Shown here: positions 59 to 3,953 of the stretch, one piece after another
Numbering within the stretch: the first letter of the stretch is position 1
Layout: each line of letters starts with the position of its first letter
From: Escherichia coli
Lineage (GTDB): Bacteria; Pseudomonadota; Gammaproteobacteria; Enterobacterales; Enterobacteriaceae
Reading direction: 5' to 3' (one strand)
Assembly (NCBI RefSeq): GCF_011045215.1
Contig: NZ_CP049203.1
Length of the DNA: 4,727 bases
Notes under the pieces: generated by a model
Database searches by the model: none
What the model saw: only the letters and a program-made list of their open reading frames with translations
Told to the model about the DNA's origin: nothing
Translations under genes and position numbers: made by a program

Positions 59-808
59 TTAACGCTTATCTCGCAACTGCGCAGCTGTATCTTTATTTCT
101 CTGATCACCTCTTTGATGTAAATTTCGATGGCTCTCTTGTGCAGCCGTCTCCCAGTCACCACGATTAACTGCAGCATTGAAATTAGGAAAATCTTTAGAT
201 AACTTAGGGATACCTAAATTAAACCCCATGTCAACCAACGCTGTTTTCCTTGAATTAGAAAAACCATCATAACCAGAATACAAAGAACGCAATCCCTTCT
301 CTGTCACTTGAACATCACTAATACATAAACCGATAACAGCATTATTTGATAAATGTAAGTTCATAGGAACTTGTCTAGAATCTTTTTTAAAATTATTAAA
401 CGCCTCTGTAATTTCCTCTTTAGATGCGGAAACCTCTTTTTCCATATCATCACCATGAGCATGCCATGTATGTGTTCTTGAAAATGGAAGGGATGCAGCC
501 ATATCAGGCGTAGATAGTAAATGACCGATTCCAACAGTAATATTTCCCTCACTGTCTTTGTACATTGTGTTTTTAAAACCTTCATGAGATTTCAAATTAT
601 TAACACACATAGTCATATAAAAACCATCATAACTCCTAGTGGAGGAAATATTTATGTGTGTCTTATCAGAAATGCCCTCATGACTATTCCCTCCAGAGTG
701 TCCACCATAGCTACTATGATTATCACCATCATAACTATGAATCGTGCCATAAGGGGTATCATGATCGTGCCATCCCGGACCTTGATTAGAACTTTCAATA
801 CCGCTCAT
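59..808 (-). CDS. T4-type lysozyme (GH24 muramidase) domain protein with Gly/Ser/His-rich N-terminal extension, 249 aa; candidate SOS-inducible cell-wall-degrading bacteriocin
   Basis: Long ORF in AT-rich DNA. Start set at ATG 808-806 (Met31 of the 279-aa track ORF) because AGAGGA lies 8 nt upstream and the earlier Met codons are upstream of the LexA box; stop TAA at 61-59. Residues ~85-249 align by eye with T4 lysozyme: SHEGFKNTMYKDSEGNITVGIGHLL vs T4L [25 protein letters not shown], with Glu, Asp and Thr at T4L-equivalent spacing (E11/D20/T26); C-terminal RKTALVDMGFNLG and DWETAAQ match T4L RRAAINMVFQMG and WDEAAV. Confidence 0.85.
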   Translation of the reverse strand: MSGIESSNQGPGWHDHDTPYGTIHSYDGDNHSSYGGHSGGNSHEGISDKTHINISSTRSYDGFYMTMCVNNLKSHEGFKNTMYKDSEGNITVGIGHLLSTPDMAASLPFSRTHTWHAHGDDMEKEVSASKEEITEAFNNFKKDSRQVPMNLHLSNNAVIGLCISDVQVTEKGLRSLYSGYDGFSNSRKTALVDMGFNLGIPKLSKDFPNFNAAVNRGDWETAAQESHRNLHQRGDQRNKDTAAQLRDKR

Positions 809-1367: not shown

Positions 1368-1582
1368 CAGCACCGTAACGGTGCCTGCCTCACAGTGCTG
1401 GATCCAGCACCGCAGCACCGTAAGCAGCACCGTAAAGGGAAAATCCAGCCACAATCCAGCACCATAACAGGCACCGTTACAGTGCCTGTTGTTGATTAAC
1501 ACCATGATTAATAAGGATTAGCACTGTAGCAGTGCCGGTTACAGTGCTTGATCCAGCCACAATCCGGCACCGTTGCGGTGCT
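1368..1582. repeat. Dense cluster of short palindromes and direct repeats built on GCACCG / CAGTGC, flanking an AT-rich core (1487-1520)
   Basis: CAGCACCGTAA x3 (1368-1378, 1413-1423, 1425-1435). Palindromes: gcaccgt-a-acggtgc (1370-1384), perfect 16-bp gtgctggatccagcac (1395-1410), ggcac-N7-gtgcc (1470-1486), gcactg-tag-cagtgc (1521-1535), gcaccg-ttg-cggtgc (1567-1581). Direct repeat atccagccacaatcc[a/g]gcacc at 1443-1463 and 1551-1571. Confidence 0.6.
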
Positions 1583-1832
1583 GCGTATGGCGGAAAAACG
1601 TAAATTTTGCCACCTGAAATAATTCTAATGCACTGATTCCAAAGAGAAATCATGCAAAACGCAGTTTTGCGACAGGTGTGGTGACAGCAGGTCAGAGAAG
1701 GGGCGGATTCAGATATGAATCCGGGCCAGATCCGGGCATTAAGGGGTTCCCGGAAACATGAATAAGATTGCCAGTGCACGGGGATTTTTAATCCCCTGCC
1801 CCGTTGAGCCGCTCCACGGCGAAAAGGGGAAA

Positions 1833-1852
1833 GTAAAGTTAGCTAACTTTAC
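1833..1852. repeat. Perfect 20-bp palindrome gtaaagttagctaactttac; candidate operator or minus-strand terminator hairpin
   Basis: Self-complementary over all 20 bp. On the minus strand it is followed directly by TTTCCCCTTTTC and lies about 130 nt downstream of the stop of ORF 1981-2226. Confidence 0.5.
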
Positions 1853-1980
1853 ATGTCCTGCCCGGCGTTCACCGGTGTTTATGGCGGGGAACTGAACCAC
1901 CGGACGGGTGGAAACATGTGTATTCCTGTGTGCCCCTGTGTAATCCGGTGGATTTGTGTGTGCAAAATTCCGTAGCCGGT

Positions 1981-2226
1981 TCACCTGCGCCTCGCCGGCT
2001 GCCAGGTAAACGTGTTCTCTGCGGCACGATATGCTTTTGTTCGTTGAGCCTTTGCGCTTCTCGCTCTGCGTTCTGCCCGAATCATTCTCAAAACTTTTGC
2101 ACGCACTTTTCGCTTAACTTCCCGTGGCAGCTCTTCTTTGTCGGATAACTGCAACTGCGCAGCCTGTAAGGCATACGCATCACTGATACGCTTACGTTCT
2201 GCCACTGTCAGTTTCACCCAATACAT
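1981..2226 (-). CDS. Hypothetical small basic protein (81 aa), possibly ribbon-helix-helix-like DNA-binding or relaxosome-accessory remnant
   Basis: ORF with a G-rich Shine-Dalgarno-like sequence (GGGGGATAGGT) before the ATG. The protein is strongly basic and helix-prone (KRKVRAKVLRMIRAERRARSAKAQR). Its N-terminus WVKLTVAERKRISDAYA resembles the strand-helix start of RHH proteins. No firm homology; GC-rich DNA produces chance ORFs. Confidence 0.35.
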   Translation of the reverse strand: MYWVKLTVAERKRISDAYALQAAQLQLSDKEELPREVKRKVRAKVLRMIRAERRARSAKAQRTKAYRAAENTFTWQPARRR

Positions 2227-2322
2227 ACCTATCCCCCTGGCAACTTCCCGGAGTTATGCCTTTCGCTGTTTCCTGTTCGTTGTCGTTCGTCTGAGGTGTC
2301 GAGGCTGTGCCCTGACCAGGCA

Positions 2323-2498
2323 TTTTGTAGCACTGCCGCATCGGTGGCGGTGCTACAAAACATATCCTGTCCCGTCGATGGGGCAGGATATCACGTCCGT
2401 TAGTTTTCATCGTCCGGGGTGCAGGGGTGGCACTCCTGCCAGGCGTTTTGCTGAACGGCCATCACCGATGGCGGTTCAACAAAACATATCCTGTCCCG
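2323..2498. repeat. Two ~30-bp imperfect direct repeats (2345-2374 and 2469-2498) with associated inverted repeats
   Basis: tggcggt-NNN-acaaaacatatcctgtcccg occurs twice about 124 bp apart. An 11-bp inverted repeat ttttgtagcac / gtgctacaaaa (2323-2333 / 2350-2360) overlaps the first copy, and atatcctgtccc / ggggcaggatat (2362-2373 / 2380-2391) is a 12-bp inverted repeat with one mismatch. Confidence 0.55.
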
Positions 2499-2632
2499 CC
2501 TTTGCGTTCGCCGTTCGCGCATTGATGGCCAGCTTTGGCCAGTACACTGGCCATCACGCCGGGTCACTTTGTCAGATGTTAAAAAATCACGCGGTAAACG
2601 CCGTTATGCGCGGGTTTGCGCATGAAGCTCCC

Positions 2633-2667: not shown

Positions 2668-2816
2668 ATCAGGAACCGCCGGAACGTTCGTGTTGATGAC
2701 GGCAACATGCGCACAACGCAGACAGAAAATCGCGCACATATTCAGCAAAAAATAAGCGTCACGGGGTGTTAATTTCGTGCAGCCCACGCGTGGCAGGGCT
2801 TGTGTGATAATTTTCA

Positions 2817-2852
2817 GTGACGTCACCTGGTGTGATGACCAGGTGACGCACA
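2817..2852. repeat. Inverted repeat cgtcacctggt / accaggtgacg (11-bp arms, 6-bp spacer) carrying GTGACG(T/C)CAC motifs, about 40 bp upstream of rop
   Basis: 2821-2831 pairs with 2838-2848. The 10-bp palindrome gtgacgtcac sits at 2817-2826 and GTGACGCAC at 2844-2852; the same 9-mer occurs at 2659-2667 and inverted at 2633-2641. Confidence 0.55.
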
Positions 2853-2891
2853 GGCGGACGTAATAAACACCAGTAACGGAGACGGGAGAAC

Positions 2892-3086
2892 GTGAACAAA
2901 CAGCAACAGACCGCGCTCAACATGGCGCGATTCATCAAAAGCCAGAGCCTGACATTACTCGGGAAACTTGACGCTCTGGACGCCGACGAACAGGCCACCC
3001 TGTGCGAACGGCTACACGAACTGGCGGAAGAACTCTGTGACAGCGTACAGACGCACTTTGAGGCGCAGTACAGCACGGAACCATAA
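2892..3086 (+). CDS. rop: Rop/Rom, RNA I-RNA II pairing modulator of ColE1-type replicons (64 aa, GTG start)
   Basis: MNKQQQTALNMARFIKSQSLTLLGKLDALDADEQATLCERLHELAEELC aligns along its length with pMB1/pBR322 Rop (MTKQEKTALNMARFIRSQTLTLLEKLNELDADEQADICESLHDHADELY, from memory). It is oriented toward the origin as in pBR322. Stop TAA at 3084-3086; GGAGA/GGGAGA precedes the GTG. Confidence 0.9.
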   Translation: MNKQQQTALNMARFIKSQSLTLLGKLDALDADEQATLCERLHELAEELCDSVQTHFEAQYSTEP

Positions 3087-3796
3087 CAGGGGCTGGCGAA
3101 AGCGGTCGCGGCTCGTCCGTGAGCGTTTTCGCCAGCAGACAAGCCCGGAGAGCGCGTCAGGACATGGGCTGAGAGAAACACCGGCGCGTAAGTGCTCAAA
3201 TCAGACTGGCGGAGACATTCCGCTTCCTCGCCCACTCGCTCACTACGTTCGGTCGCTGGGGCTGCGGCGAGCGGTGACGGCTCTCTCATAACGGCGGACA
3301 GTTTATCCACAGAATCGGGGGATAAGCCGGACAGAACATGTGAGCAAAAAGCACGAACAAAAAGGCCGCGGCGGGGCCGTTTTTCCATAGGCTCCGCCTC
3401 CCCCTGGCGAGCTTCACACTTTTCGAAGCTGCAAGCCTAGGATTTGACGAAACCCGATGTGGCTTCAAGATCATCACCGTTTCCGGTGAATCGCTCCCCC
3501 CTGCGACCTCCACATTCCCGCCATATCGTTTGCCGGATACCTTACCGCCTTTCCCCTTGCGGGACCGTGGCGCTTTCTCATAGCTCACGTGCATCTCTGC
3601 GGTATCTCGGGCGACTTAGGCAGTTCGCTCCAGGTCTGGCTGTATGCAGGACCCCCCCTTTCAGCCTGACTGCTGCGCCTGTTCCGGTAACTGTTCTCTT
3701 GAGGCCAACCCGGAAAGACACGCCTTAACGCCACTGGCAGCAGCCACTGGTAACTGGATTTGCAGAGCGAGATGTATACAGATGGTTACAGAGTTC

Positions 3797-3831: not shown

Positions 3832-3940
3832 ACAGTTTTTAGGTAATCTGCGCTCTGCGATAGCCAGTTACCATTGGAACAATGAGAAGGTGAGATGTCT
3901 CATCGCTCCCGGAAAAAACCGCCTTACGGCGGTTTTTTCC
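3832..3940 (+). ncRNA. RNA I (antisense replication inhibitor)
   Basis: Begins ACAGTTTTTAGGTAATCTGCGCTCTGC (pMB1 RNA I begins ACAGTATTTGGTATCTGCGCTCTGC) and ends in the hairpin plus U-tract aaaaaaccgcc-ttac-ggcggtttttt (3913-3936). About 108 nt, antisense to the 5' end of RNA II. Confidence 0.8.
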
Positions 3941-3953
3941 GTTTACAAGCCGA

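Follow-up and report, generated by a model that had tools for sequence, protein, structure and literature searches.

A DUF3811-like gene for a small basic protein among predicted transfer origins of a ColE1-type plasmid of Escherichia coli

The stretch of DNA analysed here in full (the window; 4,727 nucleotides of Escherichia coli contig NZ_CP049203.1, assembly GCF_011045215.1) is a small ColE1-type plasmid, and our subject is an open reading frame (ORF) in the spacer that separates rop from what we take, from the sequence and its cer-like core, to be a cer-type XerCD site near 1111–1145. The ORF lies on the minus strand, starts with ATG at 2226–2224, stops with TGA at 1983–1981 and comprises 81 codons (Table 1). 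Its product contains 23 lysine and arginine residues against 8 aspartate and glutamate residues, which gives a net charge of +15 and an isoelectric point (pI) of 11.46. An earlier sequence-only reading of the window had picked out this ORF as a small, very basic and helical product that looks like a real protein and has a plausible ribosome binding site, and each of these points was borne out: coordinates, charge and pI were verified, the AGGAG-like Shine–Dalgarno sequence is kept at equal spacing to the start codon in all four of the DNA contexts that we aligned, and the protein is helical in AlphaFold2 models.

Relatives of the ORF were found by tblastn in 506 plasmid records, in 479 of which at least 80% of the query was covered. 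Full-length matches were 40–94% identical, and their hosts were chiefly Klebsiella and Escherichia, with fewer Citrobacter, Enterobacter, Serratia, Salmonella and Hafnia. The ratio of non-synonymous to synonymous substitution rates (dN/dS; pairwise, Nei–Gojobori) was 0.13–0.31 between close relatives. Across the four aligned contexts (the window, an E. marmotae plasmid, a 3.9-kb E. coli plasmid and an insertion flanked by insertion sequences (IS) in an IncK2/Z plasmid), DNA similarity was confined to the interval from the Shine–Dalgarno sequence to the stop codon, and the flanks were unrelated in two of the four. Because of these dN/dS values and the limits of the conserved interval, the ORF appears to be a discrete unit under purifying selection, and by these sequence measures it is a genuine conserved gene, far above chance.

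A search with a broader profile returned 122 proteins, the majority on contigs of 3–12 kb; their named sources were mostly Escherichia and Salmonella and included, among others, Xenorhabdus, Obesumbacterium, Pantoea and Enterobacter. Strong basicity runs through the whole family (pI 10.5–11.6, net charge +7 to +16). Nearly every source annotates its members as 'hypothetical protein', as does the Prokaryotic Genome Annotation Pipeline (PGAP) on the plasmids that we examined.

Family assignment and predicted fold

The relationship that gives the family a name is to YjbD (DUF3811, PF11656), a chromosomal 90-amino-acid protein of Enterobacteriaceae; the match supplies a family name and not a mechanism. 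When 15 diverse family members were scanned against Pfam, DUF3811/YjbD was found in one at 1.3e-4 and in three at 0.1 or below, and the NCBIfam model PRK10515 gave weak C-terminal matches to two members. For a direct comparison we used E. coli K-12 yjbD and an alignment of 14 YjbD proteins. In hhalign, the family alignment and the YjbD alignment matched at a probability of 80.5% and an E value of 1.3e-5; the 72 columns that align collinearly (5–80 against 8–83 of 90) take in nearly the whole length of both families. The match to the single YjbD sequence had 44% probability (E 2.3e-4). Both families also consist of basic proteins of about 80–90 residues whose extreme C-terminus follows the pattern [ST]-F-[ST]-W-x(2-6)-R-[GR]-R-R: the window protein ends in TFTWQPARRR, a Xenorhabdus member in TFSWSASVGNRRR and E. 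coli YjbD in SFSWSANTSTRGRR.

Structure comparison led to the same name. A Foldseek search of AFDB50 recovered only the family itself and A0A427KDZ2, an 82-residue Enterobacter protein that UniProt labels 'YjbD family (DUF3811)' and that is 46% identical to the window protein (template-modelling (TM) score 0.89, E 2e-5). A Klebsiella member bears the UniRef name 'DUF3811 domain-containing protein' in the cluster listing. An exhaustive search of 1.8 billion representative proteins with a hidden Markov model (HMM) of the family matched only 31 clusters, all of them family members or fragments; because nothing outside the family was returned, we see no distant annotated relative beyond DUF3811.

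The plasmid proteins and YjbD are alike in size (78–90 residues), in their strong basicity and in the order of their elements: an N-terminal hydrophobic-T-x-x-E box, a helix, a loop, a long basic helix and the [ST]F[ST]W...R[GR]RR tail. They differ in that identity to E. coli YjbD is only about 17%, that the plasmid tail is usually TFTWQPxRRR and not FSWSANTSTRGRR, and that the plasmid genes are carried on ColE1/CloDF13-type replicons, whereas yjbD is chromosomal and lies between rluF and lysC. On these comparisons we class the ORF with a plasmid-borne branch of YjbD/DUF3811 that has diverged from the chromosomal proteins; it is a new member of a known, uncharacterised family.

The AlphaFold2 monomer model (12-sequence alignment; predicted local distance difference test score (pLDDT) 83) consists of coil at residues 1–7, a helix at 8–24, a 10-residue loop, a helix at 35–72 and a flexible tail, so that the predicted shape is a two-helix hairpin. 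Lysine or arginine is conserved along helix 2, where K38, R42 and R53 vary little or not at all across the family, and the C-terminal tail with its aromatic residue and RRR is invariant. The sequence-only reading had likened the N-terminus to the strand–helix start of a ribbon-helix-helix (RHH) protein of the CopG/MobC type, and this part of it was not sustained. The monomer model has no N-terminal strand for antiparallel ribbon pairing, and beta strands were likewise absent from both copies of a tandem-dimer model, two copies fused by a 30-residue linker with a paired 15-sequence alignment and designed to permit ribbon formation, although the confidence of that model was low (predicted template-modelling score (pTM) 0.35). 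The compact strand–helix–tight turn–helix domain of about 45 residues that marks RHH proteins is not seen in the ORF protein. The profile search proposed for the RHH fold was also negative: the window protein had no Pfam match at all, even at E 10, and the RHH families PF01402, PF05713, PF21983 and PF05509 were absent from the matches of the 15 family members. With hhalign, the family profile reached a probability of 0.12% against an alignment of MobA and TraJ, the RHH proteins cognate to the neighbouring transfer origins described below, and 0.09% against MobA by itself. As a separate candidate, membership in a defence-system or phage family was rejected, PADLOC giving no match and PHROGs noise only.

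Predicted transfer origins and the slot beside them

The cer-to-rop spacer holds four predicted copies of an origin of transfer (oriT), one F-type, one IncP-like and two I-type, and all four nick motifs lie on the plus strand and point in one direction (Table 1). The largest ORF in the window encodes 279 residues with a Phage_lysozyme domain (the bacteriocin) and no window ORF is of relaxase size, which agrees with the earlier statement that this backbone lacks a relaxase; sibling plasmids are typed non-mobilizable by MOB-suite. The window is an oriT-only hitchhiker plasmid with four predicted oriTs for three helper types.

Both I-type copies, which lie in tandem, align with the intergenic region beside mobA, which encodes an RHH protein, and traI, which encodes a MOBP relaxase, in MPF_I conjugative plasmids, among them pUMNK88_Hly and pJX4-3. 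A GGGGTGTCGGGGC...CCTGACCAGG box and an inverted repeat make up the element together with a nick region, AAAACATATCCTG|TCCCG, which is invariant in both window copies and in the mobA-side intergenic regions of these two conjugative plasmids. Like the IncP-like copy described next, the copies thus have the predicted make-up of a MOBP-type oriT (inverted repeat, about 8 nt, YATCCTG|Y-like nick region, homology to conjugative plasmids). Their nick regions are identical and their inverted-repeat arms unlike (GTAGCAC versus TTGAAC types), and because the arms differ, the accessory proteins of two distinct helper plasmids are suggested as the recognisers.

For the IncP-like copy, window positions 1838–1881 match the intergenic region between traJ and traK of pYDC107_41, a MOBP/MPF_T plasmid, at 95.5% identity. 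The perfect 20-bp palindrome at 1833–1852 is a shortened form of the pYDC107_41 inverted repeat, which has 18-bp arms, and it is followed by ACATGTCCTG|CCCGG, identical to the sequence in pYDC107_41. The nick region and right arm match that plasmid with one mismatch, and the left arm and loop are deleted, which leaves the palindrome perfect. A sub-threshold match to the Rfam model traJ-II covers the element on the minus strand; set against the RP4 oriT sequence, this model, 'traJ-II RNA', seems to represent IncP-type oriT DNA read as its complement, and not an RNA. The segment 1854–1962 is 83–85% identical to a non-coding region of MOBF/MPF_F plasmids, among them p120899_50, where it lies between a toxin–antitoxin pair and a J-domain gene, and p666 of enterotoxigenic E. 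coli (ETEC) H10407.

The F-type copy is 80–97% identical to the traM–SLT intergenic region of IncF conjugative plasmids, one of which comes from the strain of a sibling small plasmid, and includes GCAGCACCGTAA repeats that, from what is known of the F oriT, are presumably TraM/TraY sites. The nick motif GGTGT|GGTG (1679/1680) marks the precise end of its similarity to F plasmids, a boundary that would be expected of a segment captured through relaxase-mediated recombination at nic.

The repeats to which the sequence-only reading had drawn attention are all present, namely the direct repeats 2339–2374 and 2463–2498, the inverted repeat 2323–2337/2346–2360 and the 20-bp palindrome. It had named them as sites at which binding of the ORF product should be tested; the inverted repeats of helper-type oriTs account for them in any event.

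Relaxase-less plasmids that carry only oriTs have been described (PMC9282650), and up to five oriTs on one plasmid have been reported (PMC10123127). The 'pOriT' plasmids pBuzz and pSe-Kan resemble the window in lacking a relaxase and in bearing oriTs copied from helpers, of which a single plasmid may have several (PMC9282650). The likeness is one of context and does not extend to the ORF: in the window, a DUF3811-like gene is surrounded by four predicted oriTs that share one orientation and belong to three types of helper.

The ORF occupies a recognisable position relative to the I-type oriT. In the I-type parents the gene order is relaxase, RHH accessory gene, oriT, with the start of the accessory gene about 50 bp from the conserved box; the window ORF starts 64 bp from this box and has the orientation of the parental accessory gene. 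At the same position, the sibling ColE1-like plasmids CP057986 and CP117577 carry a gene for a ProQ/FinO-family protein of 116–124 residues, with both flanks conserved. Because the siblings hold this gene between conserved flanks, the slot beside the captured oriT is exchangeable, its occupant being an RHH accessory gene, a ProQ/FinO gene or a DUF3811 gene, and the ORF arrived there as a cassette. The suggestion that the ORF is an accessory factor left behind after the loss of mob genes is at odds with this arrangement, in which it is a swapped-in cassette and not a degenerate accessory gene. We also rejected the ORF as a truncated ProQ/FinO remnant: in the alignment one cassette has cleanly given way to the other, and nothing similar to the ProQ/FinO gene is left.

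With the RHH proteins of the NikA/MobA/TraJ type (R64 NikA, RP4 TraJ, NikA of the pCERC7 group), the ORF protein shares small size and the slot and orientation of its gene relative to an I-type oriT, and with the pCERC7/pU302S group it shares a plasmid without a relaxase (PMC9282650); it differs from them in having no sequence, profile or predicted-fold similarity. The ProQ/FinO genes lie at 1189–1563 in CP057986, at 1452–1802 in CP117577 and at 3261–3635 in a third plasmid, and adjoin the captured I-type oriT. These relaxase-less siblings also bear an F-type oriT, and the FinO-like protein of such a hitchhiker might influence transfer of the helper.

Elsewhere in the window, the bacteriocin gene encodes 249 residues, with an N-terminus rich in glycine, histidine and serine ahead of the Phage_lysozyme domain; its product is probably a small lysozyme-type bacteriocin. 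A 159-codon ORF at 4204–4683 (minus strand) has no family match and may encode the immunity protein for the bacteriocin. Upstream of rop lie a perfect inverted repeat with 13-bp arms (GTGCGTCACTTTG/CAAAGTGACGCAC) and a second palindrome that contains GTGACG (2633–2667 and 2821–2854); the first of these recurs in p7-S1-IND-02-A (3.9 kb), where it adjoins the family gene.

Table 1 Features of the window, with strand and basis of assignment where given
Feature	Position	Strand	Basis
Gene for a basic, predicted two-helix 81-aa protein (plasmid-borne, YjbD/DUF3811-like)	1981..2226, stop codon included	-	ORF list, homologues, dN/dS, AlphaFold2, hhalign, Foldseek
Shine–Dalgarno sequence GGGGGA, 5 nt before ATG	2232..2237	-	Sequence reading; spacing conserved in other contexts
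Leader and upstream region shared with ProQ/FinO-carrying siblings; contains the former FinO start codon, now ATA	2227..2289	-	Alignment; flanks conserved, cassette swapped
Predicted oriT of the I-type (MOBP/MPF_I), copy A: box GGTGTCGAGGC...CCTGACCAGG, inverted repeat at 2323-2360, nick region AAAACATATCCTG|TCCCG, nick inferred at 2369/2370	2290..2400	+	Alignment with pUMNK88_Hly and pJX4-3
Predicted I-type oriT, copy B: other inverted-repeat arms, nearest pUMNK88_Hly, nick inferred at 2493/2494	2414..2524	+	Same alignment; direct repeat
Predicted IncP-like (MOBP/MPF_T) oriT: nick region ACATGTCCTG|CCCGG, nick inferred at 1860/1861	1791..1881	+	Identity to pYDC107_41; sub-threshold Rfam traJ-II match
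Predicted F-type oriT: GCAGCACCGTAA-type repeats, nick motif GGTGT|GGTG, nick inferred at 1679/1680	1415..1690	+	IncF identity, alignment
RNA I	3835-3942		Rfam RF00106, 44.7 bits, slightly below the gathering score of 47
rop gene	2892-3086		Annotated 'Rop family' in all relatives
Probable bacteriocin gene with SOS box	59-808	-	LexA box 852-867; Phage_lysozyme PF00959, 4e-8

Candidate roles of the protein

We propose that the ORF is a real gene for the predicted two-helix, plasmid-borne branch of DUF3811, and that its product serves ColE1-type plasmids as a nucleic-acid-binding accessory factor of the backbone. We hold this reading as a whole at a probability of about 0.6, most of the weight of which lies in the identity of the gene and its family. 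A nucleic-acid binder is the most economical reading because of the net charge of +7 to +16, the conserved lysine and arginine residues of helix 2 and the invariant aromatic-RRR tail, and with these the protein would bind nucleic acid with little sequence specificity. As a backbone factor of RNA I/RNA II plasmids it could act on plasmid RNA, or on DNA in transfer or establishment, and we do not expect it to act as a repressor with the adjacent repeats as its specific operators. Recognition of the repeats would fall to TraJ-, MobA- or TraM-type proteins and relaxases provided in trans by F-type, IncP-like and I-type helpers.

A more specific role, as a helper in mobilisation, is unlikely, although several neighbourhoods speak for it. 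Such a 'MobE-like' relaxosome, coupling-protein or transfer accessory would make helper conjugation systems move ColE1-type plasmids more efficiently, for instance if it bound at oriT or close by or were recruited to the secretion system through its arginine-rich C-terminus. In two distinct lineages the family gene follows a co-oriented MOB_HEN relaxase gene at a distance of 17–34 bp; disrupted copies stand ahead of exc2/exc1, the slot after mbeA in ColE1, in pSMS35_8 (IS-disrupted) and p14408_3; and in the window and the E. marmotae plasmid the gene takes the accessory-gene slot beside oriT. A ColE1-type oriT-like box adjoins it in the 3.9-kb plasmid, and a traM–oriT(F) fragment lies near it in a 150-kb Enterobacter plasmid. 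Yet ColE1 itself, which has no homologue of the gene, is typed mobilizable and has a MOBP relaxase; most family members are divergent from a bacteriocin gene and distant from oriT; the chromosomal homologue YjbD is unlinked to conjugation genes; the family resembles no known relaxosome protein (hhalign against MobA and TraJ); and adjacency counts for little on plasmids this small.

We regard as similarly unlikely an RNA-binding regulator, in which the helical hairpin would tune the copy control exerted through RNA I/RNA II, or act on further transcripts of the plasmid, either together with Rop and ProQ/FinO or in an analogous way. The host replicons that typing or neighbours could identify are all of the RNA I/RNA II type (ColE1/CloDF13), or are cointegrates or integrated copies. 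On a Xenorhabdus bovienii plasmid contig (HG780066, 2997–3445) the family start codon falls 0–3 nt from the rop stop codon, which implies a rop–DUF3811 operon; the junction is either an ATGA overlap or has its start at a second ATG 3 nt further on, after GAGGA. In the window, the gene stands where the siblings have a ProQ/FinO-family gene; the shared flanks include the former start codon and ribosome-binding-site region of that gene. The product of the window gene is comparable in charge to the FinO-domain protein. The two kinds of protein share this exact position and a basic, largely alpha-helical character, but they are not homologous: hhalign against the FinO-family protein of a sibling plasmid gave a probability of 0.4%, with no FinO-domain similarity. 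Two plasmids carry both genes together, so the two are not simple substitutes for one another.

It is a longer shot still that the plasmid DUF3811-like proteins form an unrecognised class of nucleic-acid-binding transfer or establishment factors, with which ColE1-type hitchhikers exploit their helpers or settle in a new host. Under that proposal no gene would reach a recipient earlier than this one when transfer starts at the F-type or the IncP-like nick site; its template is the transferred strand, much as for leading-region genes, and the invariant W-x-P-x-RRR C-terminus could serve as a secretion or partner-docking signal.

Very improbable, in our view, is a factor that belongs to the bacteriocin module, regulating the adjacent bacteriocin operon or co-regulated with it, its position in the window being secondary. 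The commonest setting of the family gene is indeed divergent from a bacteriocin gene, 116–330 bp from its start, and this holds over unrelated toxins: colicin D (pColD157-like), cloacin-like tRNases or rRNases (on abundant CloDF13-like plasmids of Klebsiella), a Salmonella pore-former, a pesticin-like operon and a 791-residue protein. A leader of about 60 nt directly upstream of the family gene is also conserved between colicin D and cloacin-type contexts (GGAGAG...TTAA.CTGTT...ACCCGGAG.CCACC-ATG; 2346–2608 and 2675–3000 in the two plasmids compared) and may be a conserved leader or promoter. The window ORF, however, lies 1.1 kb from the bacteriocin gene, with cer and two oriTs between them, and none of the three annotated genes of the close 3.9-kb relative p7-S1-IND-02-A is a bacteriocin gene. 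The LexA boxes of other plasmids are on the bacteriocin side, at a distance of 168–263 bp from where the ORF starts, and the window has no such box close to the ORF, so that SOS control of the gene through them was rejected as well; and the divergent pattern could merely mark the junction of backbone and cargo.

An RHH DNA binder that autoregulates through the flanking repeats or acts as a NikA/MobC-like relaxosome accessory protein is scarcely credible and, computationally, largely refuted by the fold and profile results above, even though the N-terminal hydrophobic-K-L-T-x-x-E pattern recalls a strand followed by a helix N-cap, the ORF stands exactly where the RHH gene mobA stands in the parental conjugative plasmids, and ColE1-like plasmids that carry only NikA provide a precedent (PMC9282650). 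Taken as a whole, the sequence-only interpretation is partly supported.

Several points weigh against our preferred reading of a nucleic-acid-binding backbone factor from DUF3811. A promoter scan of 1700–2700 found no sigma-70-like site that would support expression here. The window protein itself goes unmatched by the Pfam DUF3811 model, even at E 10, and the link to that family is carried by profile–profile comparison, a shared motif and intermediate family members. Among solved structures there is no sequence match for the window protein, the family profile or YjbD, and the confidence of the dimer model, as noted, is low. The literature on YjbD holds incidental screen hits only, with no function for DUF3811 proteins, and the proposed binding of nucleic acid is read from charge and predicted shape only. 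The contexts of the family gene, beside bacteriocin, mob, rop or oriT, are heterogeneous and point to no one pathway, and on plasmids of 4–10 kb adjacency to any module is expected by chance and is weak evidence.

The family is common, with its 506 plasmid records that include 10,060-bp Klebsiella ColRNAI plasmids. Its surroundings here show how a relaxase-less ColE1-type plasmid combines four predicted oriT copies that belong to helpers of three types; this platform is a clear example of an already known phenomenon, and the ORF alone is one more member of a DUF family, but the exchangeable gene slot together with the stacked oriTs bears on how hitchhiker plasmids are constructed. A widespread plasmid gene is now linked to the orphan enterobacterial protein YjbD, and because of this link a cheap plasmid phenotype (copy number, mobilisation or bacteriocin expression) could reveal the role of DUF3811. 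If a role in transfer or establishment were true, it would also provide a first clue to what the chromosomal orphan YjbD does.

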